A stretch of 64,000 nt of DNA from an uncultured Bacteroidota bacterium (GCA_963779325.1 CAVZXS010000011.1:400858-464857); one strand, 5' to 3'; shown: positions 4,948 through 23,338, numbered from the stretch's first letter. The notes: a model not told the origin generated them from the letters alone. Translations and numbers: made by a program.

Positions 4948-4971
4948 TAAGACTTAAATCCCGAAATAATT

Positions 4972-6947: not shown

Positions 6948-8163
6948 ATGGCATACCGCAAATTTCAGGCAGATCAATTATTTACTGGCTATAAACTATT
7001 GGCCCGAAACAACATATTAATAACCGATGAGGAAGGCATTGTACAGGATATTGTAGCGTCGGAAAGTGCGGGGGATGATATACAGATTTTGGAAGGCATA
7101 CTTAGTCCGGGTTTTATTAATAGCCATTGCCACCTGGAGCTTAGTCATTTAAAAAATATAATACCGCCGCATACAGGCTTGATTGAGTTTTTATGCTCAG
7201 TGGTTACTAAAAGAGAAGCCCCCGCCAAACCTCCCTCTGAGGGGGAGGCTTATGAAGACCCCGAACAATTAAAAATGCGGGCCATTATTGCAGCAGAAAA
7301 AGAAATGTATGATAATGGCATAGTGGCCGTAGGTGATATTGGCAATACAGCCGATACTTCACAATGTTAAAAGCACAAGCAATATCTATTGGCAAAATTT
7401 TGTAGAGGTAATAAGTTTTACCGATGCAAAAGCTGATGAAAATTTTGAAAACTATACCAAAGTTGCCAAAGAAATGGAATCCGCTCTCAGCACATCACGC
7501 ATTACTCATCGTACTTCTTTGGTGCCGCATGCTCCTTATAGTATCAGCCCAAGGACATTTCAAAAAATTAATGCGGCTACAAAAAATAAAATTATTTCCA
7601 TTCATAACCAAGAACACCCTGCAGAGGATGAGTTGTACAAAACCGGCGGCGGCGAATATTTAAAACTCTTTAAAATATTCGGAATGGATAAATCACCTTT
7701 TCCCGTTACCGGCCTGAGCAGCATCAGAAGTTATTTGCCTTATTTCAACAACGGGCAAACAATTTTTCTTATTCATAATACCTACATGCCCGAAGAAGAT
7801 ATTGTATTTGCCAATAACTATGCGGCCGAAAACGGGTTGACACTGATATACTGCTTTTGTATAAATGCAAATTTGTATATAGAAAACAAAGTGCCTGCTG
7901 TAGAAAATTTTATTAAGCACAATTGTCATATTGTATTGGGTACAGACAGTTACAGCAGCAATTGGCAGTTGAGTATCGGTAAAGAAATAAGCTCGATGCA
8001 AAAACATTTTCCGCAATTGGGTTTGGAGAAATATTTGCAATGGGCTACCATTAACGGCGCCAAAGCCCTGCACCGGGATGATCAATTGGGCAGTTTCGAA
8101 AAAGGTAAGAAACCGGGAGTTGTCTTATTAAATAAAAATTTTGACAGTAAAAGAATATTGTAA
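6948..8163 (+). pseudogene. metal-dependent amidohydrolase (chlorohydrolase/deaminase family), split by a frameshift near 7333-7370
   Basis: ORF 6948..7370 carries the N-terminal HxH metal motif (FINSHCHLELSHL) and ORF 7333..8163 the rest of the barrel (..IHNQEHPAEDE.., ..LGTDSYSSN..); 37-nt overlap in different frames. Confidence 0.65.
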
Positions 8164-8169
8164 TCAGTT

Positions 8170-8917
8170 CTAAAAAATTTCTTTAAGTACCGGTAAAGTT
8201 TTCATGGTACCAAAATCCTGTACATGCAGTGCATAATAAGTTTCATACGTATGCAGGAGTTTTCTTCTGAACTCGTGGTTGAGTTTTATATCTTCCAACT
8301 CTTCGGGCCGCATTACTTTTAATAATTCAGCTGTCATTAAAGCAGCAGCAGATTCAATAAAATGCGGATGCAGCGGTTGTTCGTTGGTAAAATTTCCCTC
8401 CTTCAGGTCAAAATATAAATTTTGCGTGCTTATCAGGTTTTCATTCAACGGGTTTGGCGGTATACCAAAAAAATTGGTTAGTTGCAATGCAAAGAACAAA
8501 GGGAAAGTTGGCTGTTACCGTTTCGCTGCTTTCATCAAGGTGTATAAAAGCATCTTCTGTAAAATGAAAGAGTTCTTCATTCGGTTCGGTTTGCTTGAGG
8601 CATTTAGTCAATAATTCAATCATAAATACAGCGACGGCATTTTTTTTTATATCAGAAAATATATGCTGATACAAAAAGCCCCACTTAAATTCTTTAATGC
8701 GTTGCAGTTGTTTTTGTTCACTGTGGTAAACGATCATATCCAGTAATGCACCGGGCTGAAAAAGGTTGGCCTTACCGCTGCCTTTTTTACTGCTTGTTCG
8801 CACACCATTTATCATATACGATTGCGTACCGAATTTTTCAGTAAACAACAATACAATCAAGCTGGTTTCACCGTATTTGGTGGCGCGCAGCACAATACCT
8901 TTCGTTTTGTGTGTCAT
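8170..8917 (-). pseudogene. recO: DNA repair protein RecO, split by a frameshift near 8441-8499
   Basis: N-terminal ORF 8441..8917 (MTHKTKGIVLRATKYGETSLIV..) matches RecO OB-fold N-domain; C-terminal ORF 8170..8499 continues; overlap in different frames at an A/G homopolymer region. Confidence 0.75.
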
Positions 8918-9135
8918 TATCTGTACAAAAATGCGAATAAAATTAAGGCGAACATTGTTTTATTTTATTCCGCTAATCACCCTTTAGGGTAACAGCATTT
9001 TATTATTATCTTTTTATTTTTACTTTCAGATAAACTTTAAAAGTTACAGTCCCGGTAATTTCATTTTTGTGCAAAATAAATTATTTAATCATTAAACTTT
9101 TTACTCCGGTAATCATCTGACTTAAAATTTTTATT

Positions 9136-10074
9136 ATGAAAAAACAAAAATTAATCCTTTGCATTGCCCTATCCGTCTTTGCATTTACAGAAACACAAGC
9201 GCAGCATATTCCCGCACAAGACTCTACCGGTTTGCCCGGCGACAATTTCAGCCTGCAAGGCGCCTTAGGAATGTTTCAAAAAGCCAATTCAGTTGAAGAG
9301 TTTGAAAAATTAATAAACTCAGAAGATAATAGCGTCAACAATCTTGACTTGAACGGCGATGGCGAAATTGATTATATCCGCGTAATTGATAATAAAGAAA
9401 AAGATGCGCATGCCTTTGTATTGCAAGCTGCCATTTCCGGTACGGAAAGCCAGGATATAGCTGTAATAGAAATGGAAAAAACCGGCGATACAACTGCCAT
9501 TTTACAAATTATTGGCGACGAAGATATTTACGGTGAGCAAACAATAATAGAACCCGGCGAAGGTGAAGAAGACGAAATAGAAGAAAGCAATTACCCGCAG
9601 AGCGGCCCGAGCCCGGGTTATACTATGCATTATAAATACAAACCGCGTTTTATAGTAAATGTATGGTTTTGGCCGGCAGCTCGGTTTGTGTATGCACCGG
9701 CTTATGTAGTTTATCGTTCGCCTTGGGGATGGCGTCATCATCCTAATTGGTACAGACCCTGGAGACCTTTTCGTTGGCATGTTTGGCATCCGCTGAGATA
9801 TCGTCATCACCATCATTGTGCCGTAGTGCGTACGCATCGGGTAATTCATGCACACAATGTTTACCGACCTTACAGAACAACTTCAGTTGTTGTAAGAAAC
9901 AGGCATCAAACGACTGTAAATAACTACCGCGTAACGAGAAGTACTAAAAGAACTGTTGTAACAGGCCCAAGAGGAAATAAAGCAGTGGCAACTAAAAAAA
10001 CTACAACCGTTCGAGGTCCGGGCGGCAATGTAAAAGGAAGGAAAACTACTACAACTGTAAGAAAGAAAAGATAA
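9136..10074 (+). CDS. secreted hypothetical protein with His/Arg/Trp/Tyr-rich low-complexity C-terminal half
   Basis: 312 aa, signal peptide MKKQKLILCIALSVFAFTETQA, acidic middle (EGEEDEIEESNYPQ), then WFWPAARFVYAPAYVVYRSPWGWRHHPNWYRPWRPFRWHVWHPLRYRHHHH.. tail. Confidence 0.5.
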   Translation: MKKQKLILCIALSVFAFTETQAQHIPAQDSTGLPGDNFSLQGALGMFQKANSVEEFEKLINSEDNSVNNLDLNGDGEIDYIRVIDNKEKDAHAFVLQAAISGTESQDIAVIEMEKTGDTTAILQIIGDEDIYGEQTIIEPGEGEEDEIEESNYPQSGPSPGYTMHYKYKPRFIVNVWFWPAARFVYAPAYVVYRSPWGWRHHPNWYRPWRPFRWHVWHPLRYRHHHHCAVVRTHRVIHAHNVYRPYRTTSVVVRNRHQTTVNNYRVTRSTKRTVVTGPRGNKAVATKKTTTVRGPGGNVKGRKTTTTVRKKR

Positions 10075-10090
10075 GTAATAGAACAAAAAA

Positions 10091-10127
10091 GAAAGCGCCG
10101 TCAAAATTTGACGGCGCTTTCTTTTTT
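10091..10127 (+). terminator. rho-independent terminator
   Basis: 13-bp stem GAAAGCGCCGTCA-aaatt-TGACGGCGCTTTC followed by TTTTTT. Confidence 0.75.
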
Positions 10128-10134
10128 GTCATTG

Positions 10135-10150
10135 TGCGGAGACTAAGGGA
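10135..10150. repeat. att core (left copy; partial duplicate of tRNA-Ser 3' end)
   Basis: identical to 20510-20525. Confidence 0.7.
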
Positions 10151-10267
10151 CTAAAACCTATGTTATTTTTAGCTAATTACCTTTAGCAAAATGCAGTCGA
10201 AAAATGACTTTAAACAGGGATACTAACAATATGAGTAAATAAGACTAAACGTAATTAGTATAAAAAT

Positions 10268-10289
10268 TGCTCCCCTTTTTGCTCCCCTT
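10268..10289 (+). repeat. 22-bp putative integrase arm-type site (left), TGCTCCCCTTTTTGCTCCCCTT (itself a tandem TGCTCCCCTT x2)
   Basis: identical 22-mer at 20436-20457 in the same orientation, each 50-120 bp inside the element ends. Confidence 0.6.
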
Positions 10290-10331
10290 TTTTTAAATGC
10301 CTTATCTTTACCCCAAGTTAAAAGCATAAAT

Positions 10332-11648
10332 ATGGGTACAATTCGTTTTGAACTCCGCAACGAAAAGACTGATAAAACAGGCAAAGCACCTGTACGAATG
10401 ATTTACCAAGTTAGCGGGCAACGTAAATACTATAATACAGGAAAAAAAGTACCTCCCCAAAGTTGGCACCCGGATAAACAGCAAGCTATTTACCTCGATA
10501 AAAAGACTGCAAAGAAATTACACCCGACAATTCCTTACGATTTACTTTTCACTCACAGCGAAACAGAAACGCTTAATAACGAACTTTCAGACCTGCAAAA
10601 ACAAGTGAAGGAAATTGAACATCGGTTTGAAATGGATAAAATTCCTTACTCCGCTGAAATGGTGATTGATAAACTAAATGACAATAAAAAACCAACTACT
10701 AAGAAAGAAGCTCCAAACAAAATATTATTTGATTTCATTGATAAGTACATTGAAGATCATAAAATGACAAGGGAGGCGGGGAGTTTAACGGTTTACAAAT
10801 CGTTGAAAAATCATTTACAGGATTACCAGCAGGCCACAAAAAAGAAAATAGCTTTTGATAAAATAGATTATTCTTTTTTTCAATCTTTCCAAAACTTCCT
10901 GATTGAAAAAAAGGGCTTAAACAATACCACCGTAGCTAAGCAACTAAGCACCGTTAAAACATTTCTTAACTATGCTAAAACACAGGGTATTGCCGTTACC
11001 GATAAGTATAAAGACTTTAAAATAAAGCGGGAAACATTGGAAGTAATTGCCTTAACCAATGAAGAATTTGAAGCCTTGTATTATCTCGACCTCTCGGCAA
11101 ACAAAAGACTTGCACAGGTACGGGACGTTTTTTGTTTTGCCTGTTCTACCGGGTTAAGGTATTCAGACCTCAATCAACTGAAACGGGAACACATAAAGCA
11201 TGATGAAATAAGGATAACGGTAAAGAAAACAAAAGAGCCTCTAAGCGTTCCCCTAACTCCGTATTCAAAAACCATATTAGCAAGATACGAAGCCATGCAC
11301 CGGCCCTTGCCTGTAATTAGCAACCAACGGTTAAATGATTATGTAAAAGAATTATGCAGCATGGCGGGTATTTCCGATCAGGTGGAAATAGTACGTTTCA
11401 GAGGTACGAAACGGGAAGCCATTACCTATAAAAAATATGAACTGATAGGAGTACATACCGGCCGTAAAACATTTGCCACACTATCGCTGGAAAGAGGAAT
11501 GAGTGCGGAGGAAGTAATGACAATCACGGGCCACAGGGATTACCAAAGTTTTAAACGGTATGTGAAGGTAACAGAGCAACGTAAAAAAATCGTAATGCTG
11601 AAAGCCTGGGGCGGCGAACTAAGTTCAATAAAGTTAAAAGCAATATAA
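10332..11648 (+). CDS. tyrosine site-specific recombinase/integrase with N-terminal arm-type DNA-binding domain (Bacteroidetes integrase family)
   Basis: 438 aa; N-terminus MGTIRFELRNEKTDKTGKAPVRMIYQVSGQRKYYNTGKKV typical of Bacteroides-type integrase arm-binding domain; C-terminal catalytic HTGRKTFAT...GHRDYQSFKRYVKV (R-H-R-Y). Confidence 0.9.
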   Translation: MGTIRFELRNEKTDKTGKAPVRMIYQVSGQRKYYNTGKKVPPQSWHPDKQQAIYLDKKTAKKLHPTIPYDLLFTHSETETLNNELSDLQKQVKEIEHRFEMDKIPYSAEMVIDKLNDNKKPTTKKEAPNKILFDFIDKYIEDHKMTREAGSLTVYKSLKNHLQDYQQATKKKIAFDKIDYSFFQSFQNFLIEKKGLNNTTVAKQLSTVKTFLNYAKTQGIAVTDKYKDFKIKRETLEVIALTNEEFEALYYLDLSANKRLAQVRDVFCFACSTGLRYSDLNQLKREHIKHDEIRITVKKTKEPLSVPLTPYSKTILARYEAMHRPLPVISNQRLNDYVKELCSMAGISDQVEIVRFRGTKREAITYKKYELIGVHTGRKTFATLSLERGMSAEEVMTITGHRDYQSFKRYVKVTEQRKKIVMLKAWGGELSSIKLKAI

Positions 11649-11656
11649 TTATCAGT

Positions 11657-12217
11657 ATGCAGATCATTAAAAGTATTCAAAACAGGATTTATGAAATAAG
11701 AGGCGAAAGGGTAATGCTTGACAGGGATTTGGCCGCACTTTATGAAACCGAAACAAAATCTTTGAATCTTGCTGTAAAACGTAATGCAAAGCGTTTCCCT
11801 CCCGATTTTATGTTTCAGCTTACCAAAACTGAATTTGAGGCTTTGAGGTTGCAAATTGAAACCTTAGAAAAATCAGACAATCCTTTGAGGTTGCAAAATG
11901 AAACCTCAAAAGGCAGGGGTGGCACAAGGTATTTACCCTATGCCTTTACCGAACAGGGCGTTGCCATGTTAAGCGGTGTATTAAACAGCGACAACGCCAT
12001 AAACATGAATATTGCTATTATGCGAGCTTTTGTAGAAGTAAGGAAGGTACTGATAAAACAAAATGATTTGAAAGAACAGTTGAAAGAGATAAAAGAAAGA
12101 TTGGGGGAACATGATGTACAACTGAATCAAATTTACGATGCAATGGAAAACCTGTTGGACGAAAAAGCAGCGGAGAGAAAGTGGGATGAAAGAGAAAGAA
12201 TAGGGTTTAAGAAATAG
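11657..12217 (+). CDS. ORF6N-domain protein (KilA-N-related DNA-binding/antirepressor-like)
   Basis: 186 aa; IRGERVMLDRDLAALYETETKSLNLAVKRNAKRFPPDFMFQL matches ORF6N domain; coiled-coil C-terminus. Confidence 0.7.
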   Translation: MQIIKSIQNRIYEIRGERVMLDRDLAALYETETKSLNLAVKRNAKRFPPDFMFQLTKTEFEALRLQIETLEKSDNPLRLQNETSKGRGGTRYLPYAFTEQGVAMLSGVLNSDNAINMNIAIMRAFVEVRKVLIKQNDLKEQLKEIKERLGEHDVQLNQIYDAMENLLDEKAAERKWDERERIGFKK

Positions 12218-12249
12218 ATTAAAATTTTAATATAAAGTGTAAAAGACTA

Positions 12250-14934
12250 ATGGAAAATAATCTTAAAAAAGAAACAATTGATTCATTCAATTTAGATATT
12301 TTTTTTCAGTTACATGGTACGTCGAAATACGCAAAGAGTGATAGCGACTTTCAGGTAATATTTGAAAGAGAAATGAAGGAGTTAAACGACGTAGGGTTAG
12401 CGATTACCAATAGAAGTAAAATTTTTCAAATCAAAGAAATAATTGCTGATGTAGAGAAATATATTAAGCGATATAATGAAGTTCGAACTTATAAAGCTGT
12501 TAGAAACAGGGGCTTACTTGAAGCTGCTCATGAGTTTATCAGTTGGTTGAAAATAAAAAAGGAAAGTCTAAGAGAACAGGGTAAGGAGGCAAATCACAGC
12601 AACAAAAAAAAGTCCTCGCTAAAAGAAAAATTATCTGAATCATTGACACAAAATAAATCTTCTGATATGATGGTTGATTGCGAGAAATGTAACAAGTTGT
12701 TTATAACGGAAATAAAGGATTTATGTAGCAATTGCAGCATACACAGACAAGTAAGTGATGTTAGGGAAAATATGATATTAAAGTTTGAAACACTCAGCAG
12801 TACAAATAATAAGAGTGCATTAATTGATTACCTTAAAGAGAAAATAGATAAAGGGAATAAAATTATAATAGATACTATAGACGGGGACTCACTACACGCA
12901 GACGATAATTACAGAAAAAATAGAGTTGCAATAATACTTAGCTGGAAAGATTGCGTGAAATATTATAGCGAACAATTGGATTTGCTGAATGATGCAGCCA
13001 CAAAAAATAATAATGAAGACCCTATTTTCTCAGGCTTAGAGCCTCCCCGATATTATTATGCAATTGATAACGGAAATTTTCGAATTACCAACAACGCTAC
13101 CCCGGAACAAATAAATAGTCTTGTTAAGAAAATTCAAGCTACAAACACAATGAAGTTTTGTAATGAACTAAAAAGTAAAACTGCTGATGAAATACCGGCA
13201 TACTTAGATTTTCATTTACGATGTTTTAAACGTAATGGGGGCAACCCTTCTGAGTGGCTTATCTATACAAAAAAGCAAATGCCCGGCGGTTTTTCGCATC
13301 AACAACAGGATGCTTTTTTGTTGTGGTTTGAAAACAACCGGTTAAATAACGAAACTAAAACCGGAAATGATATGCCCGAAGATAATCTAAACCATAATTC
13401 ACGGCAATACAAAGAAGCATTTGAAAAATATAATACTGCCTGCAATGAGCTAAGAAAAAAGTACAGGGTAGAATATATTATTACAAAGGAAGATTTGGAA
13501 GATATCCCCAACGCAAAAGAAGGTGATAAAACAACTACAAATCCACCTATCCCAAATAATACTAAAGAAGCATTTGAATTATTTAAAAACTACTATGGCG
13601 CTATACAACTTGAAGTGAATAAATTACACTTTTGCCAAAAATACCTCGCATGGAATGAACCTGCTATCAAAGCAGAAATAAAAATTATTGAAGACTGGAT
13701 AAACAAGGCGGAACAAATAAAGTATTCAGATTGTGCTATTAACCCGCAAGGCAATATTGAAAACTCTCATAGTCAGGAACATGAATATTTAAGATTAAAG
13801 AATGGGTTTTATGAAAGCTATTTAATGACGTGGGAGCAACACCAATATACATCAACTGCTTCAACTGTTTGCGGTAGGTATTTTTTATTTTATGAGTATC
13901 TTAAAGAATTAGTAAAAGGTGAAATTTGTAAGGTTCCCTCAATAATAGAAGCTATAAGGAATAATCCCAAAATCTGTGATGAAATACTATGGTCATATTA
14001 TAATATGGTAGATCAACCTAAAGAAAGACCTAAAAATTATGTAGGGCCACTTTGGAGGCACAATGCACCTTATCAGGTAAATATTTATGGAGCTTACCCA
14101 CTAATGAGCCAGTGGGAGATTTTGGAAATGCACATGGCTAATGTCGATGATAAAAGCGGGTATTACAAAGAATACAAAAAGGAGAAAGTTTTTGAATCGT
14201 TAAAGGATTATGCCAAAGGTTTTCGATTTGGCTTTGATAATTTTTTTGTTGATATAGCAAAAGAGAAATTAACTTCTGAATTGACCCGGGAAGAAAAAGT
14301 TTTTGCGATTATTGATTATTTGACAAATCCCTTTAACAGATCTGGCTTTTCCATATCACGCGGAGTAGGTGATGTTTTTTCAGGTTGGTATGATGACGGG
14401 GTAAACGGAGGGAAATACTATTGTGCGTGGTATTTTATAATGAGTAACCACCGACTTTTTGAGCCTCATTTTAAAGAAAAAAATAAACTCCCAGAAAAAG
14501 ATGAGAGCGGAGATTTTATAGAAGCTAATTTCGAAGAAGCAGCCGATGCAACTCGTGATTTGATTACTAAACATCTTCATTGCCTTTCAGGTAAATGGAG
14601 AGGTGTGCAAATAATGACTAATGATGAGTACGAAAGACTTATTAAATACGCTCTATACACCTTTAAAAATACAAAACTACCTTTGAAAATAGAGGCAATA
14701 AAAAAAGGCCAAAGCAAAACTCCAGAGTTATTTTACAGGCAAACAATATATCTGTTTTGGAAGATTGAACTAAAGGGAAATAAAGAGCATAGGCAGGATT
14801 TGTGGATTGATTTTTATAAAAAGATTTTCGCTCCATTTTGTAAGAATATTAAGAGTGAATGGAGTAAAAATTTTTCTAAATCTTACAAAAGCTATCCGGC
14901 GGATAAAAATAATATAGATTACACTAAAGCATAA
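12250..14934 (+). CDS. large hypothetical protein (894 aa), cargo of the integrative element; no recognisable catalytic motif
   Basis: intact 2.7-kb ORF, Lys/Glu/Asn-rich, one CxxC..CxxC cluster (CEKCNKLFITEIKDLCSNCS), several aromatic-rich blocks (GWYDDGVNGGKYYCAWYF). Confidence 0.6.
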   Translation: MENNLKKETIDSFNLDIFFQLHGTSKYAKSDSDFQVIFEREMKELNDVGLAITNRSKIFQIKEIIADVEKYIKRYNEVRTYKAVRNRGLLEAAHEFISWLKIKKESLREQGKEANHSNKKKSSLKEKLSESLTQNKSSDMMVDCEKCNKLFITEIKDLCSNCSIHRQVSDVRENMILKFETLSSTNNKSALIDYLKEKIDKGNKIIIDTIDGDSLHADDNYRKNRVAIILSWKDCVKYYSEQLDLLNDAATKNNNEDPIFSGLEPPRYYYAIDNGNFRITNNATPEQINSLVKKIQATNTMKFCNELKSKTADEIPAYLDFHLRCFKRNGGNPSEWLIYTKKQMPGGFSHQQQDAFLLWFENNRLNNETKTGNDMPEDNLNHNSRQYKEAFEKYNTACNELRKKYRVEYIITKEDLEDIPNAKEGDKTTTNPPIPNNTKEAFELFKNYYGAIQLEVNKLHFCQKYLAWNEPAIKAEIKIIEDWINKAEQIKYSDCAINPQGNIENSHSQEHEYLRLKNGFYESYLMTWEQHQYTSTASTVCGRYFLFYEYLKELVKGEICKVPSIIEAIRNNPKICDEILWSYYNMVDQPKERPKNYVGPLWRHNAPYQVNIYGAYPLMSQWEILEMHMANVDDKSGYYKEYKKEKVFESLKDYAKGFRFGFDNFFVDIAKEKLTSELTREEKVFAIIDYLTNPFNRSGFSISRGVGDVFSGWYDDGVNGGKYYCAWYFIMSNHRLFEPHFKEKNKLPEKDESGDFIEANFEEAADATRDLITKHLHCLSGKWRGVQIMTNDEYERLIKYALYTFKNTKLPLKIEAIKKGQSKTPELFYRQTIYLFWKIELKGNKEHRQDLWIDFYKKIFAPFCKNIKSEWSKNFSKSYKSYPADKNNIDYTKA

Positions 14935-15025
14935 AAACCAATCTCAATAAGGGTTTCGCTAACCCTACATTCCCGCTCTTTTTCCCGCTCATCCCTACTT
15001 CTAAGTTGCGTTCAAATTAATAAAA

Positions 15026-15316
15026 ATGACGCAACAAATCACAACCACACTTTCAGAGGGCGAATTAACTGCGCTAATTGAAAATGCTGTAAACAAAGTC
15101 GTACAGCAAATACCCGACAATCAAAAAATCAAAAGCACTCCTATCTCAAGACGGGAATTAATGAATCGGTTAAACATAAGTGAGCCGACAGTGATACGTC
15201 TCGAAAAAAAAGGTAAAATTCCATGTATGCACATCGGCTCGGCCGTAAGGTATGATTGGGAAGCAGTTATTGAAGCATTGGAAAGTAAAAAGAAAAGTGG
15301 AGGGTCTCAAAAATGA
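15026..15316 (+). CDS. excisionase-like helix-turn-helix DNA-binding protein
   Basis: 96 aa; ISRRELMNRLNISEPTVIRLEKKGKIPCMHIGSAVRYDWEAV resembles the Xis/MerR-like HTH_17 domain common in Bacteroidetes mobile elements. Confidence 0.6.
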   Translation: MTQQITTTLSEGELTALIENAVNKVVQQIPDNQKIKSTPISRRELMNRLNISEPTVIRLEKKGKIPCMHIGSAVRYDWEAVIEALESKKKSGGSQK

Positions 15317-15606
15317 AACACTCCACTAAAAAATCTTTGACTCAGCAAAGCAAAGATAAAAAATATAAAACAGAATTGAGGATAGTTTTTGATGCTTTTT
15401 TTAAGCAGCCAATGACTATGAAAGAACTGTCAGTAAAGTATAACGTTGATAGAGCCTCCATTTGTTGGTATTGCAGGGAGTTTCGGCTAAACAATCAAAT
15501 TGCAATAGTAAAAAAAGTGTATTGCAGCATTACAAAACATCTTGCCAACCGATACACTACCAACCCTGCATTGTTTCCTGTTTCATCACAATTAAAAATG
15601 TTTTGA
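15313..15606 (+). CDS. hypothetical small protein (translationally coupled to upstream gene, ATGA overlap)
   Basis: 97 aa; possible HTH (MTMKELSVKYNVDRASICWY). Confidence 0.4.
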   Translation: MKHSTKKSLTQQSKDKKYKTELRIVFDAFFKQPMTMKELSVKYNVDRASICWYCREFRLNNQIAIVKKVYCSITKHLANRYTTNPALFPVSSQLKMF

Positions 15607-15609
15607 TGT

Positions 15610-16779
15610 ATGGAACAAATAAAACCTCAATTCGATTTTGATAAATTCGGAATCGGCAGTATCCCGCCGTCCGAAACGCTGGAGCATGTCAACGGGTTTA
15701 TCAATAACACTATTAGCGATGCTGCGAATCAAAATAATTTGAATCCGCTCAAAGAATTTGAAAGACTGCGCATAACGGATACTACACCGATAAAGCCGCC
15801 TGTACCTGTTATTACTATCAATGGCGAAACTATAAGCACGGAAGGAAACCTGACTACCATAAGCGGTGCCAGTAAAAGCGGCAAAAGTGCGTTTAGCAGC
15901 ATACTCATTGCGGGGGCAATAAGCAATGACGGTGTTATTGACGGATTAGACAGTGTAGAAGTTCAACCCAATACAAACTGTAAAGCCGTATTACATTTTG
16001 ATACCGAACAGGCCCGGCATAAACATCAATACAATGTCAAGTCTATTCTTAAAAGGGCGGGTATGGAAAAATGCCATGAATACTTTCTGTCTTACAATAT
16101 TCGGGAATTGGATATAAGCGATTACGCAACTATCACCAATGACATTTGCCACGCAGCCGAAGAACAGTTTGGCGGTATCCACTTGGTTGTAATTGACGGT
16201 ATTGCTGATTACATAAGCGATGTAAACGACCCTATACAATCCAACGCTATTGTAAAGTTTTTTGAAGAGTTGGCAATTAAGCACCAAACGCCGATAATTA
16301 TTATTGTACATACCAACCCCGGCAGTGATAAAGAGAGAGGTCATTTGGGCAGTCAGTGCCAGCGCAAAAGCGAAAGTGTAATAATGGTAAAGACAGAGGG
16401 AGACATTTCATTTATTGAGCCTAAGTTTTTGCGGATGGCCGGCAAGGGCAGCATACCGCTCATTCAATTTATGTACGATAAAAATAAAGGTTACCATGTC
16501 GGGTGCGGAATAAGAACAGATGACAATGCAAAGAAAGATGCAGAACGTATTGCAGCAATTGAAAAAATATGCGGTAAAGTTTTTGGCGGACAAAAAGCAC
16601 ATGCTTACAGCGATGCGATTGCCGCCATAATGCGGGAGACGGATAAAAAAGAAAGAACAGCAAAGGATATGTTTACCGAAATGAAAGCGCATGAAATGAT
16701 AATACAGGGAGGTGATAAAAATTGGCGACTAAGCACCGGGCAAAGCGAAGAAACAGAGGAAGACAACTTGGTGCAGTAG
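15610..16779 (+). CDS. RecA-superfamily ATPase, RepA/DnaB-like (AAA_25-type) replication protein
   Basis: 389 aa; Walker A SGASKSGKS, Walker B IHLVVIDGIADY, RecA-fold core; typical of plasmid/phage replicative ATPases. Confidence 0.6.
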   Translation: MEQIKPQFDFDKFGIGSIPPSETLEHVNGFINNTISDAANQNNLNPLKEFERLRITDTTPIKPPVPVITINGETISTEGNLTTISGASKSGKSAFSSILIAGAISNDGVIDGLDSVEVQPNTNCKAVLHFDTEQARHKHQYNVKSILKRAGMEKCHEYFLSYNIRELDISDYATITNDICHAAEEQFGGIHLVVIDGIADYISDVNDPIQSNAIVKFFEELAIKHQTPIIIIVHTNPGSDKERGHLGSQCQRKSESVIMVKTEGDISFIEPKFLRMAGKGSIPLIQFMYDKNKGYHVGCGIRTDDNAKKDAERIAAIEKICGKVFGGQKAHAYSDAIAAIMRETDKKERTAKDMFTEMKAHEMIIQGGDKNWRLSTGQSEETEEDNLVQ

Positions 16780-16865
16780 TGTTGCACCGGTTCAATTGCA
16801 CTGCCCTGCACCGGTGCAGTGGTGCAATAGGGTATAGGGAATTGCACCGACTGCACCGCCCGTAA
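16780..16865. repeat. iteron-like cluster of TGCACCG repeats with embedded perfect palindrome CTGCACCGGTGCAG (candidate origin/operator)
   Basis: TTGCACCGG, TTGCACTGC, CTGCACCGGTGCAG, GTGCAAT, TTGCACCGA, CTGCACCGCC within 86 bp immediately downstream of the RepA-like gene. Confidence 0.5.
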
Positions 16866-16877
16866 TACCCTTTTACA

Positions 16878-17096
16878 ATGAAACAGCATTACATAACAGA
16901 CATTTCAAAAAAAATGGAAGAACAAAAACAAGCCCAAAAGCAGTTTAATGAAATAGTGAGCGAAGTTTTGAACAGTGACACGAACCCTGTTTATAAAAGT
17001 GTGGTTGGTGTAGTTTTTTCGCTTATTGAGGACAGGCGTTTGATTAGCCTTGACACACTACTAAAAGAAAACTATCCGGAATATTATTATGAATAA
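16878..17096 (+). CDS. hypothetical small protein
   Basis: 72-aa ORF between iteron cluster and hicB; no motif. Confidence 0.3.
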   Translation: MKQHYITDISKKMEEQKQAQKQFNEIVSEVLNSDTNPVYKSVVGVVFSLIEDRRLISLDTLLKENYPEYYYE

Positions 17097-17109
17097 GCAC
17101 AGCTGCATA

Positions 17110-17487
17110 TTACAGAATAAACCGGATAGCTGCCAACTCTTTACCTACTTGCTGCACACCCTTCAAAATACGCAGCGTTTGGACAGGCGAAGGTTTTTTA
17201 TTACCGTTGATGTATTGCGCCAAAAGACTTTGGTTAATGCCTATACGTTCAGAAAGAGCTTTAGCATTAATTACTTTGTAAAACGCAAAGAACTGCGGCA
17301 AGTCCAAACTTATTTTCAAATCACTTTCATCAACGACTTTTCCTTGCTTCTCAAAGTGAAGATTAAGGGCTTCCAGCATGTTGGCTTTAAGTTCTTCCAA
17401 AGAATCGCCAACAGTATAAACAGGATATTTTTCAGCATAGGCCGAATAACCTGTTTTAGTTCTTTCAACAATCATTTCAATTTTCAT
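17110..17487 (-). CDS. hicB: type II antitoxin HicB (RNase-H-like N-domain plus C-terminal HTH)
   Basis: 125 aa; MKIEMIVERTKTGYSAYAEKYPVYTVGDSLEELKANMLEALNLHFE matches HicB/UPF0150 fold, C-terminal ALSERIGINQSLLAQYINGNKKPS HTH. Confidence 0.8.
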   Translation of the reverse strand: MKIEMIVERTKTGYSAYAEKYPVYTVGDSLEELKANMLEALNLHFEKQGKVVDESDLKISLDLPQFFAFYKVINAKALSERIGINQSLLAQYINGNKKPSPVQTLRILKGVQQVGKELAAIRFIL

Positions 17488-17499
17488 AACTCACTATTT

Positions 17500-17685
17500 T
17501 TATTTTATACCTGCATCTTTTTTTATTTTCTTTTCCAATCCTTTACCCACTTCATGGCTGCCATGATACGGGCAAACAATTTGGCCCTTTTTAACAGGGT
17601 GTTGCATAATCATGTGGCTGCCCGTTTGCCTTACAACAAACCAACCGTCTTTTTTAAGCAGTCTTACCAGTTCGCCGGATTTCAT
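17500..17685 (-). CDS. hicA: type II toxin HicA (mRNA interferase)
   Basis: 61 aa; MKSGELVRLLKKDGWFVVRQTGSHMIMQHPVKKGQIVCPYHGSHEVGKGLEKKIKKDAGI is a near-textbook HicA (YcfA-like) sequence; directly upstream of hicB. Confidence 0.85.
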   Translation of the reverse strand: MKSGELVRLLKKDGWFVVRQTGSHMIMQHPVKKGQIVCPYHGSHEVGKGLEKKIKKDAGIK

Positions 17686-17713
17686 TTTTCAAAGGTAATA
17701 AATTTATTACTTT

Positions 17714-19084
17714 ATGCAAACACATAATCTAAAGCCATTGCCCAAACTTGAATTAGATAAAAAACGATTTCGGGTGAAAAGTTGCCCCTGTGGCAGAAGC
17801 AATAAGGACGGCAAATTTGTTCCCTATACAGGTTATGAAAATAAAGGCTATTGCCATTCATGCGGTGAAACATTTTTACCCGAACTAATAAAGAGTGAGC
17901 AATGGAATACCTCCCCTCCAAAAGCATACAGCAATCGGAGAACTATTGCGCCGAACCAAAAACAGGTTTCCTTTATTCCGGTCGAGGTATTTAAAGACAG
18001 CTTGAAAAATCATGAGACAAACCATTTTGTAAAATACTTAATTGAACTTTTTGGGATTGAGGTTACAAATGAATTGATAAGTAAATATTTTATCGGTACA
18101 TCAAATCATTGGCCCGGGGCAACCGTCTTTTGGCAAATTGATATTATCGGTAAAATAAGAACAGGCAAGATAATGCTGTACAATACTGATACGGGTAAAA
18201 GAGTAAAAGAGCCTTTCAATCATATTCAATGGGTACATAAATTGATTGACTACCCTGAGTTTGAATTAAAGCAATGTTTTTTTGGCAGTCACTTGTTACA
18301 TAATAAAACTAAACCCGTCGCAATAGTTGAAAGTGAAAAGACCGCAATCATAGCAAGTGTTTATTTGCCGCAGTTTATTTGGTTGTCCGTTGGCGGTGTT
18401 GACGGCTTGAACACCGAAAAATGCAGTGTACTAAAAGGGCGAAATGTTACACTCTTCCCGGACCTTAACCGCTTTGAAAATTGGAGTACTAAGGCAAAGG
18501 AGTTGTTAGTAAATGTTAGTGTTTCAGATTTGTTGGAACGCAAAGCAACCGAAGCAGAAAGAAAACAGGGGCTTGACCTTGCCGACTATTTGATAAAGTT
18601 CGATTACAAAGATTTTGCACTTGCCGAAACCCTCACGCAACATAATTTCAAAAATTTTCAAAAACTTTCAACATTAGAGCCGGCACCAACAGAAACCTTC
18701 CTAAAACCTCTAAATGAACTGTTAACTTATGTTAACATTGAAGGGTCTTTACCTCTACATCCGGCAATTGAAAAAACTACCGTAAAACGACGTGAAAACG
18801 CCGATAAAACCTCGGTAAAACCACCGCACAATCCAATTATAAAAGAATCACCAAAGCCCGAAAATTGGGAACAGGATATTACTGAGCTCGAAAATTATTT
18901 TGAAAGCATTGCAATCCCGCCCGGTCCCTTAATGCTGAACCAATGCGGTATAATAATAAATATTCCCTTATTCATTGAAAGCCATATTGCCACCTTGAAA
19001 GCAAATAACGGTAAGCTGACATTTGCACCGTTTTTAAGCAGGTTACAAACTTTAAAAACGATACTTCAAAATGAAAAACACTAA
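17714..19084 (+). CDS. putative DNA primase (N-terminal Zn-binding motif plus Toprim-like domain)
   Basis: 456 aa; CPCGRSNKDGKFVPYTGYENKGYCHSCGETF zinc ribbon; VESEKTAIIASVYLP ... FPDLNRFENW resembles Toprim E / DxD motifs. Confidence 0.55.
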   Translation: MQTHNLKPLPKLELDKKRFRVKSCPCGRSNKDGKFVPYTGYENKGYCHSCGETFLPELIKSEQWNTSPPKAYSNRRTIAPNQKQVSFIPVEVFKDSLKNHETNHFVKYLIELFGIEVTNELISKYFIGTSNHWPGATVFWQIDIIGKIRTGKIMLYNTDTGKRVKEPFNHIQWVHKLIDYPEFELKQCFFGSHLLHNKTKPVAIVESEKTAIIASVYLPQFIWLSVGGVDGLNTEKCSVLKGRNVTLFPDLNRFENWSTKAKELLVNVSVSDLLERKATEAERKQGLDLADYLIKFDYKDFALAETLTQHNFKNFQKLSTLEPAPTETFLKPLNELLTYVNIEGSLPLHPAIEKTTVKRRENADKTSVKPPHNPIIKESPKPENWEQDITELENYFESIAIPPGPLMLNQCGIIINIPLFIESHIATLKANNGKLTFAPFLSRLQTLKTILQNEKH

Positions 19085-19520
19085 AGCCATGCAAAAAAAG
19101 TTGAAAAAAGTTGATGAAAGTAAAAGGCTGAAATTAGTTGCGAAACTGCAAACTACATTTAACGGTAAACTTGAAGCCTTAAATATTGCTTATAAAAACA
19201 AAGACGGGTCTGCGGTTGATAAAGCAAACATAGAGTTATTTGAATTTATGGATAAGAATATACCCGAAGACAACCCCTCTCATATTCAAATGAAAAACCA
19301 TACGTGGCAGCGCAATCATTTGAAGATATTGGCAAGCATTTCAACCTCGACACAGGAAAAAAATCGTATGCCAACCAACACGGAAATATCCAATGATGCC
19401 GGGCTAAGTGAGGAAACGGTTTATAAACACCTGCGGGAATTTAAAGACCATGATCTTTACAAACATGAGGCTGATAAATACCGACTAATGATACATAGGG
19501 TACTTACAACAGTTTTTTAA
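19071..19520 (+). CDS. hypothetical protein
   Basis: 149 aa, Lys-rich; next ORF 19522..19734 starts 2 nt later in another frame (could be one gene with a frameshift). Confidence 0.35.
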   Translation: MKNTKAMQKKLKKVDESKRLKLVAKLQTTFNGKLEALNIAYKNKDGSAVDKANIELFEFMDKNIPEDNPSHIQMKNHTWQRNHLKILASISTSTQEKNRMPTNTEISNDAGLSEETVYKHLREFKDHDLYKHEADKYRLMIHRVLTTVF

Positions 19521-19521
19521 T

Positions 19522-19734
19522 TTGGGTGTACAAGGTGATATACGGGCTTGTAAAGTTTATTTGGATTACTTCATCGCTAACTCACCGGCAGCACCTGTGG
19601 AGCAAACTAATTACATACAAATAAACAATCTCAAAATAACACCTGATGAACTGGAAAAACTACCGCCTGCAACCCTGCAAAAAATAGAAACTTTAATTAA
19701 GATGCCGGTTAAAAAAACTTTGGACAGAAAGTAA
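19522..19734 (+). CDS. hypothetical small protein (or C-terminal continuation of 19071..19520)
   Basis: 70-aa ORF with non-ATG start. Confidence 0.25.
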   Translation: MGVQGDIRACKVYLDYFIANSPAAPVEQTNYIQINNLKITPDELEKLPPATLQKIETLIKMPVKKTLDRK

Positions 19735-19822
19735 GATAAATAATCCTTTTCCCGATTTCCTTTTCAATTACTATTTTTGATTAATATCCGAATAAAGTAT
19801 TAATCTATCAAAATTTTATAAA

Positions 19823-20341
19823 ATGAAAATTAAATTCATACTGTTTTCCCTACTTGCCCTGACACTTACCGGTTGTGCGCCAAAAGCATATCCTTTAAAA
19901 GGAACTTACACAAATGGTAACTATGAACAGCTTTCTGATAAAACAAAAGATCAGGTTTGGGATAACATTATTGATTTCTTTGCTAAGAATGGAATTGGTA
20001 TTAAAATAATTGATCGCAGCAGCGGATTAATTATTTCAGGGGAAACGACTTTAACGTGGAGTTATGAAAATAGTAAAGGTGAACTTTTAAATAAAGATGC
20101 GTGGGTGGCTATTTATAAAATCTATGATCCCGGTTCTCGTATTGTTTACAAACCTTATTTAGTTACCGGAGAGTGGAATATTAGAATAAAAGAGCAAAGT
20201 GGAAAAACTCTAATAAACATTAATTTGGTAAATCCAAGTTATACGCTAAGTCAGACTTCAGCAAGCAAATCAATATTTCAAAAAGGGTATTTGCAATCTA
20301 CGGGTAACTTTGAGAAATGGGTTTACGGCAATATAAAATAA
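19823..20341 (+). CDS. hypothetical lipoprotein
   Basis: 172 aa; signal peptide with lipobox LTLTGC. Confidence 0.5.
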   Translation: MKIKFILFSLLALTLTGCAPKAYPLKGTYTNGNYEQLSDKTKDQVWDNIIDFFAKNGIGIKIIDRSSGLIISGETTLTWSYENSKGELLNKDAWVAIYKIYDPGSRIVYKPYLVTGEWNIRIKEQSGKTLININLVNPSYTLSQTSASKSIFQKGYLQSTGNFEKWVYGNIK

Positions 20342-20435
20342 AAAGGGCAGGATAGAAATCCCGCCCGATAAGTTAAAAGCCATTGATATGGCCAGACAAA
20401 AATAAGATAAAAACGGCCTCAAAACAGAGGTAAAC

Positions 20436-20457
20436 TGCTCCCCTTTTTGCTCCCCTT
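20436..20457 (+). repeat. 22-bp putative integrase arm-type site (right copy)
   Basis: identical to 10268-10289. Confidence 0.6.
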
Positions 20458-20511
20458 CCATAAAATTAAAATGCAAATAATTGTAAATTAATTATTTGCG
20501 AAAATAAGTTG

Positions 20512-20598
20512 CGGAGACTAAGGGATTCGAACCCTTGATACAGTTTCCCGTATACACACTTTCCAGGCGTGCTCCTTCAACCACTCGGACAAGTCTCC
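20512..20598 (-). tRNA. tRNA-Ser (anticodon GGA), class II with long variable arm
   Basis: reverse complement reads GGAGACTTGTCCGAGTGGTTGAAGGAGCACGCCTGGAAAGTGTG...GGGTTCGAATCCCTTAGTCTCCG; anticodon loop CT-GGA-AA; its 3' end is the att core of the adjacent integrative element. Confidence 0.85.
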
Positions 20599-20633
20599 AA
20601 AAAAATCGGGTGGCAAAAATACAGTTTCATTGC

Positions 20634-21395
20634 TCAGGTTCCGAATAAAGTTTCAGCATTCTTTGTCGTAATAGAATCAACCTCTGCCAAAGACAAGTTT
20701 TTTATTTCGGTAATCTTTTCAGCTATCAGTTTCAAATAGCTGCATTCATTTCTTTTTCCCCTGTAAGGAACCGGCGCCAGGTAAGGCGCATCTGTTTCCA
20801 AAAGAATATGCTTTATAGCAATATTATTAAGTACTGTGTCCAACCCTGATTTTTTGAAGGTAACCACCCCGCCTATTCCGAGATAAAAACCAAGATCAAT
20901 AATCTTATTCGCCTGTTCGGCGCTGCCTCCAAAACAATGAAATACGCCTTTCAGTTTTCCATTTTGCTTTTTGCTCACTGCTTCAATACATTCATCTATC
21001 GAGTCCCGGGAATGAATAACAATTGGTATATCAAACTCCAATGCCCAATCCATTTGCATGTTAAAGACTTCAAATTGTTGCTCTTTAAAACTCAGGTCCC
21101 AATAAAAATCAAGTCCTATTTCACCAATAGCTATAAACTTCCTCTTTTCCAGGTATTGCCTCGCTATTTTCAGTTCTTCCTCAAAGCCTTCTTTTACCGA
21201 ACAGGGATGAAGCCCCATCATAGCAATGCATTGGCCCGGAAATCCTTCCTCTAATTGCAGCATGGAACTATGCGTTTCACTGTCGATAGCCGGTAATAAA
21301 AATTTGCTCACTCCTGCATTTTTCCCGCGCAGTATCATTTCGGCCCTGTCGGCATCAAACTCTTTGAGGTAAATATGGCAATGCGTATCAATCAT
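20634..21395 (-). CDS. tatD: TatD-family metal-dependent hydrolase/DNase
   Basis: 253 aa; [17 protein letters not shown] start and conserved His/Asp/Glu pattern of TatD. Confidence 0.85.
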
Positions 21396-21460
21396 CAGGG
21401 TATTATTTGAAACAAAACTGCCGAAAAATTTTAGCTTTACGTTAAACTTGTACTAATAAA

Positions 21461-22435
21461 ATGAATCTACCTTGCGTTATTAAATTGTACACAAAGCCCC
21501 TTTTTATGAAATTCGTAAAAACCCCTGCCCGATTACTGACTGCATTTCTGCTTATTACCCTTGCCTTTTTTACAGCTTGTAACAAAGATGAGAGTGCTTC
21601 ATTAACGGCACAAGAAGAAGAGCTGGCCTCTGTAGCCATCAGCGAAGCAGATGCTGAAGCAGATGTAGTATTTGACAATGTATTTGATGATGTAATGGGA
21701 GTGAGTGATGACGTGGGTTTACAGGGAACAGGGATATATGGTAAAATAGCTATCGTTAATCAAAATGCCCGTATTGACAGCATCAGCCCCACGCTGAGAT
21801 GTGCTTCACTTACAATAACCAAACCCAATCCACCCGCCCCTTTTCCGGTAAGAATTGTTGTTGATTTCGGCACGGGCTGTAAAGGCCCCGACGGTCGTAC
21901 ACGTTCCGGAAAAATAATTTCTGAATATACAGGACGTCTTATTACCCCGGGTGCAACGGCTACTACTACCTTTAAAGACTATAAAATTGACAGTATCTCC
22001 ATTGACGGTACCCACAAAATAAGCAATACAGGCAGCAGCAATACAGAGCGTAAGTTTAAAGTGGAGGTTAGCAATGCCAAACTCACTAAGCCCACCGGCA
22101 ATTTCGCCGAATGGAACAGTACTAAAATCATTACTCAAACCGAGGGGCTAAATACTCCCTTTATTGCAAAGGATGATATTTTCCGTATAGAAGGTAGTGC
22201 CGGCGGTCGTGTACGAAGAAATAATTTGATTGTGGCATGGAGGTCTGAGATCACGGATCCCCTTGTAAAAAGATTCAATTGCCGCTGGATTGTAAAGGGA
22301 AAAGTACGTATGATACGGTCAAACAGCAACGCAAATTCGCCGTGGACGGCATTATTAGATTTCGGCAACGGAGACTGCAATAACCGGGCTTTAATCACAA
22401 TTAATGGCATAATTCACGAAATTACTTTGCCATAA
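21461..22435 (+). CDS. hypothetical lipoprotein (paralog of 38280..39122)
   Basis: 324 aa; signal/lipobox FFTAC; shares VVDFGTGC...RSGKI and C-terminal FGNGDCNNRALITINGI..ITLP with the 38280 protein. Confidence 0.5.
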   Translation: MNLPCVIKLYTKPLFMKFVKTPARLLTAFLLITLAFFTACNKDESASLTAQEEELASVAISEADAEADVVFDNVFDDVMGVSDDVGLQGTGIYGKIAIVNQNARIDSISPTLRCASLTITKPNPPAPFPVRIVVDFGTGCKGPDGRTRSGKIISEYTGRLITPGATATTTFKDYKIDSISIDGTHKISNTGSSNTERKFKVEVSNAKLTKPTGNFAEWNSTKIITQTEGLNTPFIAKDDIFRIEGSAGGRVRRNNLIVAWRSEITDPLVKRFNCRWIVKGKVRMIRSNSNANSPWTALLDFGNGDCNNRALITINGIIHEITLP

Positions 22436-22562
22436 TAAAAAAAATATTATACCTTTAAATCAGTTTTCATAGGGTACGGATTAAAAACGGGCCAGGGTTT
22501 CTACCCCGGCCCTAACTTTTTTACTGATTTTCAATCATTTAGAATTCATTCCGCTTTTATAC

Positions 22563-23279
22563 TTACTCAATAAACTTAAACCGGTAGCCTTCTTTTTTTA
22601 AGTGAACCAGTACTTTCGGAAGCACATATTGCAATTTTTCAAAAGATTTTGTACTGTCGTGCAGCACAATTATAGAACCCGGCCCGGCATTAAAAATTAC
22701 GTTCTCAAGACATTTTTTATTGTTAATTTTTTCATCAAAATCCGCACTTAATACATCCCACATAATCACTTTAGCTTTCTTACCTTTCATTACGGCTTGC
22801 AAATTTTCTGCTTGAAATCTTGTGATTCTGCCATACGGCGGTCTGAATAAATCAGAGTCAATATGCCTTGCCGCTTCGGCTATATCTCGCATATATTTTT
22901 CATTAGAAACCTTCCATCCGTTCAGGTGATTATGGGTATGATTGCCTACACGATGACCTTCATTAATTATTCTTTTGTATAACTCCGGATGCGCCGCTGC
23001 ATTTTTACCAATACAAAAAAATGTAGCTAACGCTTCATATTTCTTTAATTCATTTAAAACAAAAGGAGTGGCTTCAGGATGCGGCCCGTCATCAAAAGTG
23101 AGATAAACAATTTTTTCAGCTGTTGGTATACTCCATATATAAGAAGGATAAATTTTCTTTATCCACCCGGGCGTTTTTACAAAATACATTGTATTCATGT
23201 ACAGCAAAGATACTGATGATGTACTTTCGCAGTAAAATTCTTCCTGCTTCAGCTGTTGCCGTTGCAACAGCAATTCCAC
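22563..23279 (-). CDS. polysaccharide deacetylase (NodB-homology domain)
   Basis: YLTFDDGPHPEATPFVLNELKKYEALATFF and downstream His motifs typical of CE4 deacetylases; true start probably an internal Met. Confidence 0.8.
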   Translation of the reverse strand: MELLLQRQQLKQEEFYCESTSSVSLLYMNTMYFVKTPGWIKKIYPSYIWSIPTAEKIVYLTFDDGPHPEATPFVLNELKKYEALATFFCIGKNAAAHPELYKRIINEGHRVGNHTHNHLNGWKVSNEKYMRDIAEAARHIDSDLFRPPYGRITRFQAENLQAVMKGKKAKVIMWDVLSADFDEKINNKKCLENVIFNAGPGSIIVLHDSTKSFEKLQYVLPKVLVHLKKEGYRFKFIE

Positions 23280-23338
23280 TTTATAAAATCGCCTGCAAAA
23301 AAATCTTATAGCACTAAAAAAATTATCTTTACAAACTT

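Follow-up and report, generated by a model that had tools for sequence, protein, structure and literature searches.

A tRNA-Ser-integrated putative mini-replicon from an uncultured Bacteroidota bacterium, an apparent relaxase-less sister of the NBU/Tn4555 mobilizable transposons that probably relies on helpers for transfer

Most genomic islands carry an integrase but no genes that can be recognised as serving transfer, and their mode of movement has long been an open question (PMC5704250, PMC11389934). Here we describe an integrated element in a 64,000-nucleotide stretch of DNA from an uncultured Bacteroidota bacterium (GCA_963779325.1 CAVZXS010000011.1:400858-464857); we call this whole stretch the window, and all coordinates are counted from its first letter. 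The element lies between two exact copies of the 16-mer TGCGGAGACTAAGGGA, at 10135-10150 and 20510-20525, which delimit a unit of 10,375 bp at the 3' end of a tRNA-Ser(GGA) gene. A preliminary description, made from the sequence alone, had proposed that this interval is a tRNA-integrated island with the layout of the phage-inducible chromosomal islands (PICIs) and related phage satellites, which to our knowledge have barely been described in Bacteroidota. The analysis reported here gives strong support to a mobile element that is integrated and has a replication module, and partial support to the satellite label.

The two copies of the 16-mer are the only exact ones in the window. No further copy was found there when up to two mismatches were allowed, and shuffled sequences gave an expectation of 0.01 matches. 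We rejected a chance origin of the repeat on the strength of this number and of the same tRNA-derived repeats in relatives of the element. The right copy, the attR core (20510..20525, plus strand), forms the 3' end of an intact tRNA-Ser(GGA) gene on the minus strand (20511..20598; ARAGORN; Rfam tRNA, 54.4 bits), which is the integration target; the left copy, the attL core (10135..10150, plus strand), duplicates that 3' end. The repeat and the intact tRNA had both been recognised correctly in the preliminary description, and the minus-strand orientation of the tRNA is a detail that it did not give. Similarity between the two attachment sites reaches beyond the 16-bp core, over 31 nt at 81%, and the left site is tRNA-like to about 10165, as would be expected if the element carries a tRNA-like attP. 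Both flanks are ordinary chromosome, with genes for RecO, a 312-aa protein, TatD and GltX.

Just inside each core are short tandem repeats. On the left, two tandem copies of the 12-mer TGCTCCCCTTTT (10268..10291, plus strand; period 12, 100%) lie 118 bp inside attL, and on the right a repeat scan found two tandem copies of TGCTCCCCTT(TT/CC) (20436..20459, plus strand) about 50 bp inside attR. All four have the same orientation, and the motif recurs in three relatives described below (L201, L199 and L187). Because the integrase has an Arm-DNA-bind_5 domain, these 12-mers are good candidates for the sites bound by its arm-binding domain. Two hairpin terminators, both on the minus strand and both found by a terminator scan, lie at the ends of the element. 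One is chromosomal, just outside attL (10083..10129; a T-run after a 20-bp stem); relatives with empty sites likewise have a hairpin immediately behind the tRNA, and the window copy is probably the terminator that served tRNA-Ser before the insertion and that also ends the upstream 312-aa gene. The other is carried by the element and faces the tRNA (20345..20366); it is kept in L201 and L199 and probably stops read-through from tRNA-Ser when the element is integrated.

We searched 13 open reading frames (ORFs) of the element against Pfam, PHROGs and NCBIfam, and against the PADLOC defence models. All of its genes lie on the plus strand except a hicAB pair. The leftmost gene encodes a tyrosine integrase of 438 aa (10332..11648; Pfam Arm-DNA-bind_5, Phage_int_SAM_5 and Phage_integrase; phrog_1 integrase, 3e-34), whose start lies 181 bp inside the left core, matching the distance of about 180 bp first reported. 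It is followed by an ORF6N (KilA-N-like) protein (11657..12217; Pfam ORF6N, 3.7e-35; PHROG anti-repressor, 8.5e-30; PADLOC PDC-S05, 1.2e-56); three PDC-S05 models match this protein, at up to 1e-56. Next, in the variable slot that follows the integrase, is a cargo gene for an 894-aa protein (12250..14934), of lower GC content (0.315-0.346). This protein matched no Pfam, PHROG, NCBIfam or PADLOC family, and its own family amounts to 3 proteins among 5.8 billion, so that its earlier designation as an orphan stands. The integrase-proximal slot may be a site for defence cargo, with the adjoining orphan as a possible partner of the ORF6N protein.

Downstream of this slot are the genes that the element shares with its relatives. 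A helix-turn-helix (HTH) protein of the HTH_17 type, of the excisionase/AlpA class (15026..15316; core family F3; Pfam HTH_17, 1.8e-6; PHROG excisionase families; a sub-threshold match to the NCBIfam model 'excise'), keeps its position in all relatives and is a candidate recombination directionality factor or activator. Between it and the ATPase gene is a conserved 97-aa protein (15313..15606; family F5), which tblastn places at the same position in 25 loci. The RepA/DnaB-like AAA_25 ATPase itself (15610..16779; Pfam AAA_25, 1.5e-8; weak PHROG matches to DnaB-like and primase/helicase families) is followed by an iteron cluster (16783..16858), a lineage-specific 72-aa ORF (16878..17096) also present in L167, L199 and L201, and, on the minus strand, the hicAB pair, a type II toxin-antitoxin module. 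HicA is a 61-aa toxin (17500..17685; Pfam HicA_toxin, 1.2e-20); the 125-aa protein encoded directly downstream (17110..17487) is named HicB, the putative antitoxin, by this position and by C-terminal Xre-type HTH matches below the Pfam cut-off only. The pair is kept in the same three relatives as the 72-aa ORF. Next come a Zn-ribbon/Toprim-type primase with a C-terminal DUF6965 domain (17714..19084; Pfam DUF6371, 1.7e-65, and DUF6965, 6.9e-21), a post-primase HTH protein of family F8 (19071..19734), and a 172-aa lipoprotein with a signal peptide and the lipobox LTGC (19823..20341), a variable cargo gene absent from L199 and L201.

The hidden Markov model searches thus agree with the identities first proposed for the integrase, the ORF6N protein, the Xis-like HTH protein, the AAA_25 ATPase, the Toprim primase and HicA. 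No match to capsid, portal, large terminase, lysis, relaxase, or type IV secretion (T4SS) and conjugation families was found among the 13 ORFs in Pfam, PHROGs and NCBIfam. The original statement that capsid, terminase, relaxase and conjugation genes are absent is therefore upheld, with the exception of a weak resemblance of F8 to small terminases. A prophage was rejected for want of structural, lysis and large terminase (TerL) genes, and an integrative conjugative element (ICE) was rejected on size (10 kb) and on the absence of T4SS genes.

Five of the window's 15 copies of TGCACCG, one pair of them palindromic, fall within the 16783-16858 cluster, directly after the ATPase gene as had been noted. 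A cluster of short repeats occupies the ATPase-primase spacer in all 13 elements in which we examined it, with a motif that differs from element to element (TGCACCG, TGTTACA, GTTTGCAA, GGTTTAAAC and GTTCACA). A repeat that keeps its position while its sequence covaries is the mark of an initiator paired with its origin. We infer that the iteron cluster is a replication origin and that the AAA_25 ATPase is a replication initiator or helicase. The ATPase shows about 27% identity with the helicase portion of a Flavobacterium phage primase/helicase, and in relatives this module is swapped among AAA_25, D5_N/DUF5906 and DUF3987 types. The primase is 31.5% identical to the primase/helicase of a crAss-like phage, and among its homologues Cys/His and acidic residues are invariant, the motif names given to them being our own reading. 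Its structural model is of modest confidence (pLDDT 62.5); the best Foldseek matches are to the RNA-polymerase domain of DnaG, the T7 gp4 primase and Twinkle, and are weak (best E 2e-3). Nothing significant turned up in the PDB by sequence, whether the query was the primase profile, the F8 profile or the AAA_25 protein. Taken at the sequence level, an AAA_25 protein, iterons and a Toprim primase together have the composition of the element's own replicon, a property expected of satellites.

Related genomes had been proposed as a place to look for an empty tRNA-Ser site. Two contigs from JGI, L200 and L201, were reached via relatives of the window GltX with at least 90% identity. L200 (87.6 kb) is collinear with window positions 3088-10080 at 89.6% identity and with 20510-24870 at 84.7%, with about 131 bp between the two blocks; its order is the 312-aa gene, hairpins, tRNA-Ser(GGA) and TatD. 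The alignment resumes at 20510, so that the right breakpoint falls exactly on the first base of the core, and L200, from a related species, is an empty site. In L201 the same site is filled by an 87%-identical variant with an identical core and identical arm repeats on both sides; this variant has an intact post-primase gene of 218 aa and no lipoprotein gene. At this tRNA a short contig of another metagenome (L187) carries a more remote relative, in which the arm motif is again the same. The empty-site DNA pattern gave 0 matches in JGI metagenomes, and an exact look-up of the left-flank 312-aa protein returned no record.

Shorter contigs add observations on the same site. A look-up of TatD gave only short Logan contigs of about 1 kb (L001-L004); all four carry the identical TatD and stop within the tRNA-Ser, 63-72 nt beyond the TatD stop codon, as is expected of a strain-variable junction at this tRNA in short-read assemblies. 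Among 31 metagenome contigs (L168-L198) that share the 3' half of the tRNA, 13 have the tRNA-Ser(GGA)-TatD pairing, and several have element-like right ends before the core ('...AATAAGT', '...AATAATAGT'). These right ends suggest that tRNA-Ser(GGA) is a recurrent integration site.

Evidence for joined ends comes from two contigs of one ENA assembly (ERZ25039524). L167 (10,315 bp) is 99.99% identical to the window element and L199 (12,848 bp) about 92%; neither has the tRNA, and in both the right end of the element runs directly into its left end (L167:9619-9640; L199:10750-10770). These contigs have right-to-left joins of the kind looked for, with an incomplete core, and show that circular or tandem forms of the element exist; the junctions are compatible with a circle, a tandem array or a concatemer. 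In L167 a 175-bp stretch of about 70% GC (L167:9832-10007) replaces 200 bp of the N-terminal coding region of the integrase; the replacement may be real, or it may stem from a chimeric read or from junk consensus. We rejected L167 as a clean attP on account of this replacement and of an 8-bp core deletion, and use it as a right-to-left junction only. L199 has insertion sequence (IS) elements in its integrase and primase genes. Either contig can be read as an imperfectly assembled junction molecule or as a derivative locked outside the chromosome.

The element belongs to a large family that is apparently undescribed in the literature we searched. In that literature DUF6371 appeared in one paper only, which lists it within Tn4555, and papers on elements from marine and gut virus-like particles do not describe the family. 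Its primase has more than 5,600 homologues. When one genome per species was scanned, 560 stretches encoded a relative, and we examined the best 80 of these 560 loci, which include Chitinophagales, Saprospiraceae, Cyclobacteriaceae, Flavobacteriales, Sphingobacteriales and Bacteroidales; the relatives are all Bacteroidota where named. Their conserved order is integrase, variable slot gene, HTH_17 protein, 97-aa protein, ATPase, primase and small protein. Seven relatives lie next to minus-strand tRNA genes whose 3' end is repeated, over 15-48 bp, just upstream of the integrase; these units measure 6.6-12.3 kb and have the integrase at the far end. Assembler-type terminal overlaps indicate that seven small contigs (4.7-8.8 kb) are circular, and two more are circularly permuted. 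Two of the circles, L025 and L029, have no integrase.

The backbone of the family is also that of the mobilizable transposon Tn4555 and of the NBUs (non-replicating Bacteroides units). A record of circular Tn4555 (CP103138.1) holds an excisionase, an AAA ATPase, DUF6371, a mobilization protein and cfxA, and two faecal 'Bacteriophage sp.' records that match the primase are NBU-like, with an integrase, DUF3987, DUF6371 and then Mob_Pre/relaxase. We ran an iterated relaxase search seeded with the three Mob proteins of these records. A Mob-like ORF lay directly downstream of the primase in 19 of 81 loci whose primase is without the C-terminal domain, and in 0 of 66 loci with a DUF6965-bearing primase, for which a median of 10 kb of upstream and 7.2 kb of downstream sequence could be searched. 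The absence of a relaxase noted at first for this one element thus extends to the whole DUF6965-bearing family. The element shares the NBU/Tn4555 backbone and has no relaxase of its own, and we therefore rejected it as a full member of that group; the split between the two sets of loci makes it a relaxase-less sister of these mobilizable transposons.

The relaxase gene after the primase appears to be replaced here by small HTH proteins. The slot is held in relatives by F6 (about 40 loci; weak DUF5681 match), F13 (36 loci; no annotation) and F8 (11 loci). Clear small terminases (TerS) occur in three loci: L031 (3568-3936; Terminase_2, 2.4e-14; phrog_51, 1e-22), L059, which encodes a homologue of the L031 protein, and L029 (2854-3288; phrog_309, 1e-9), a 4.7-kb circle with primase and TerS and without an integrase. 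The TerS-bearing relatives are small circular or permuted elements of 4.7-6.9 kb, with TerS near the primase. For F8 the signals are weak: the best match to phrog_24579, in relatives, is 2.9e-6, a Pfam match to HTH_Tnp_1_2 is sub-threshold, and the top BFVD match is a DNA-packaging small subunit at 6e-4. From these matches F8 is possibly a small terminase.

In the window the F8 gene is split into ORFs of 149 and 70 aa, which align end to end with the uninterrupted proteins of 218-239 aa in relatives. The split is a +1 frame change at a T6 run (19512-19517), and removing one T from GTTTTTTAA restores the frame. The change falls on GTT TTT TAA (19512-19520), which has the form of a prfB-like site for +1 slippage: the A site holds a stop codon, and tRNA-Phe could re-pair on TTT; an identical T6 run is present in L167. 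We rejected a programmed +1 frameshift in F8, given that housekeeping genes are frameshifted too and that the gene is uninterrupted in relatives. Several chromosomal genes (window regions 5698-8917, 25000-28214 and 36869-38114) are broken into 2-3 ORFs in different frames. Those for a peptide-chain release factor, an amidohydrolase and RecO have intact orthologues in L200, and, from ORF lengths compared with L200 and L201, a VIT/Plug/TPR gene is split as well and RtcB probably is. With so many split genes the window assembly seems prone to indels, and single frameshifts in it are to be distrusted. Because neighbouring genes are split relative to intact L200 orthologues, the F8 frameshift is most likely an assembly artefact, and neither decay nor recoding.

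On the strongly supported ground of site-specific integration into tRNA-Ser(GGA), variable occupancy, joined-end molecules and a family-wide Rep-iteron-primase module, we consider the element to be a mobile integrative mini-replicon that travels as a helper-dependent 'hitcher', with a probability of roughly 0.7. In the mechanism that we propose, the arm-binding tyrosine integrase recombines the 16-bp core at the 3' end of tRNA-Ser(GGA), restoring the tRNA and leaving attL and attR, and the HTH_17 protein, as a directionality factor or activator, would aid excision. The excised circle would replicate from the TGCACCG iterons directly downstream of the gene for the AAA_25 initiator/helicase, primed by the Zn-ribbon/Toprim primase, whose DUF6965 tail may couple it to the helicase. 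The hicAB pair would stabilise the element, and the ORF6N/PDC-S05 protein, the 894-aa orphan and the lipoprotein would be cargo, possibly for defence or exclusion. Since the element encodes no transfer genes, passage from cell to cell needs a helper or a passive route.

We rank packaging by a helper phage, that is a satellite lifestyle, first among the possible routes, while rating it somewhat below an even chance. It comes first because the relaxase slot has been replaced, true small terminases occur in relatives, the layout is PICI-like and the replication proteins are related to those of phages. Site-specific integration with attachment repeats and the absence of structural and lysis genes are likewise features that the element has in common with satellites. 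A wider proposal, which we offer tentatively and regard as doubtful, is that DUF6965-bearing elements are phylum-wide phage satellites of Bacteroidota that share the integrative replicon backbone of NBU/Tn4555, with the post-primase slot deciding the helper: a relaxase in the slot would lead to conjugative hitch-hiking, and a TerS-like or HTH protein (F8, F6 or a true TerS) to packaging by phage. If this were true, a single backbone would have changed over from one of the two chief vehicles of horizontal transfer to the other.

A number of observations weigh against the mobile-replicon reading or against its phage route. The empty site, L200, is from a different species (about 85-90% DNA identity), and its tRNA-Ser differs within the core. 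The joined-end contigs have both lost core sequence, 8 bp in L167 (between two GACTAA repeats) and 23 bp in L199, and in both the integrase gene is damaged; both belong to a single error-prone assembly of long-read style, probably that of the window itself, and, not being clean attP molecules, could be tandem arrays or locked derivatives. Replication, excision and the binding of Rep to the iterons are predictions from sequence, and the NBUs carry a homologous ATPase-primase pair though they are called non-replicating, so that these genes alone are no proof of an autonomous replicon. As for the satellite route, capsid, portal, TerL, ppi, cpm, rpp or a clear terS was not found in the element, and no cI- or Stl-like master repressor was identified in it, the regulator-like gene upstream of the replication genes being HTH_17. 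The PDB fold matches of F8 are generic HTH, and a tblastn search with F8 gave no match in 50,697 phage genomes. Relatives of the element do occur in IMG/VR; membership of a viral database is uninformative because relaxase-bearing cousins are deposited in the same way, also as 'Bacteriophage sp.', and we rejected such listings as evidence of encapsidation.

Other routes and other readings have to be set against these. The element may be an oriT-only integrative mobilizable element (iOriT) that borrows the relaxase and mating pore of a co-resident Bacteroidota conjugative element or integrative mobilizable element (IME), its primase making the complementary strand in the recipient, as proposed for plasmid primases. 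Its nearest characterised backbone relatives are indeed NBU/Tn4555-type IMEs moved by CTnDOT-like ICEs, reviews hold that many integrase-bearing islands without conjugation genes are probably oriT-only IMEs, and several intergenic regions could hold an oriT. Yet the lack of a relaxase in all 66 loci, as opposed to its fixed position in the sister group, looks like replacement of a module and not like sporadic loss, and small terminases are found in that very region in three relatives. No oriT was recognised, and there are no conjugative genes among the ORFs examined in the window; we think this route unlikely.

Alternatively, the element could be an integrative plasmid that moves between the chromosome and an episomal state, is maintained by hicAB and spreads passively, by transformation, vesicles or generalised transduction. 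The integrase-less L025 and L029, like the other circular relatives of 4.7-8.8 kb, would be at home in such a scheme, since they must persist extrachromosomally, and so would the conserved Rep-iteron-primase module and the destroyed integrase and deleted core of the junction contigs, which fit plasmid-locked derivatives. What makes it unlikely to us as well is the spread over hundreds of species and many tRNA targets, which implies efficient horizontal transfer, together with the conservation of F6, F8 and F13, which have no obvious role in plasmid maintenance. The split F8 gene, and the IS insertions and frameshifts with which L199 is riddled, might instead point to a decayed, immobile remnant of an NBU/Tn4555-like element or prophage, with the repeat as its fossil. 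This we judge highly improbable: the release factor, amidohydrolase and RecO genes are frameshifted against intact orthologues too, which makes an assembly error the likeliest cause of the F8 split, while all other core genes are full length, the attachment core is perfect, the arm sites show no damage, close relatives differ in occupancy, and there are junction contigs. A helper-dependent mobile mini-replicon remains our preferred explanation.

Elsewhere in the window, a tRNA array (29211-30095 and 31106-31166) holds genes for Arg, Lys, Tyr, Ser and Phe tRNAs, an odd ARAGORN call whose anticodon has 2 bases, and an extra weak Rfam tRNA match; it adjoins an RNaseH_like gene and varies between close relatives, with 7 tRNAs in L200 and 15 in L201. 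An IS3-type IS (34368-35767; HTH_21 and rve transposase, ORF 34725-35714) shares 75.7% identity with the IS found inside the primase gene of L199. It adjoins a fragment of HEPN_LA2681 (33948-34322), which it may have disrupted.

We regard the family as new within the known world of helper-dependent integrative elements. It may carry defence cargo, and it offers tools of use across a range of environmental Bacteroidota hosts, namely an integrase with its attachment site and a compact Rep-iteron-primase replicon.

How far, then, does the element resemble the systems already known? Like the Gram-negative PICIs, with their int/alpA/pri-rep/ori arrangement, it is about 10 kb long with an integrase at one end and attachment repeats, has an AlpA-class HTH gene upstream of the replication module and an iteron origin adjoining the initiator gene, lacks structural and lysis genes and carries defence-like cargo. 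In PICIs, however, the order is pri, rep, ori, whereas here it is rep, ori, pri, and the replication proteins of the element are not homologous to SaPI Pri and Rep. Of the satellite proposal, therefore, layout and size fit; a clear packaging or interference gene is missing, and the closest characterised kin are NBU/Tn4555. The marine VEIMEs/PICMIs, which range from less than 5 to 17 kb, combine an integrase with an excisionase/AlpA and a primase/helicase, in some cases add a small terminase, lack capsid genes, and are integrated in bacterial genomes including those of Flavobacteria (PMC9618062). The minimal relatives of our element, at 6-7.5 kb, are VEIME-like in size; VEIMEs, however, are defined by recovery from virions as concatemers. 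The 10K island of Riemerella anatipestifer is also 10 kb long and lies by tRNA-Arg between direct repeats, with an IntN1-like integrase and a demonstrated excised circle (PMC6764341). That paper mentions no primase/helicase.

The closest resemblance is to Tn4555, NBU1 and NBU2, in which a tyrosine integrase, an HTH_17-type excision protein, an AAA-type ATPase and a primase-like DUF6371 gene follow one another as they do here, and which are about 10 kb in size and have a circular excised form. NBU1, too, inserts at a tRNA 3' end, that of tRNA-Leu. Primase identity to these elements, by contrast, is just 32-40%; their primase is without the DUF6965 C-terminal domain and is directly followed by a Mob_Pre or MobA relaxase, and the NBUs are described as non-replicating, whereas the family described here includes integrase-less circles. 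The element thus differs from a conjugatively mobilised sister group at a single module, which makes the question of its helper directly testable.

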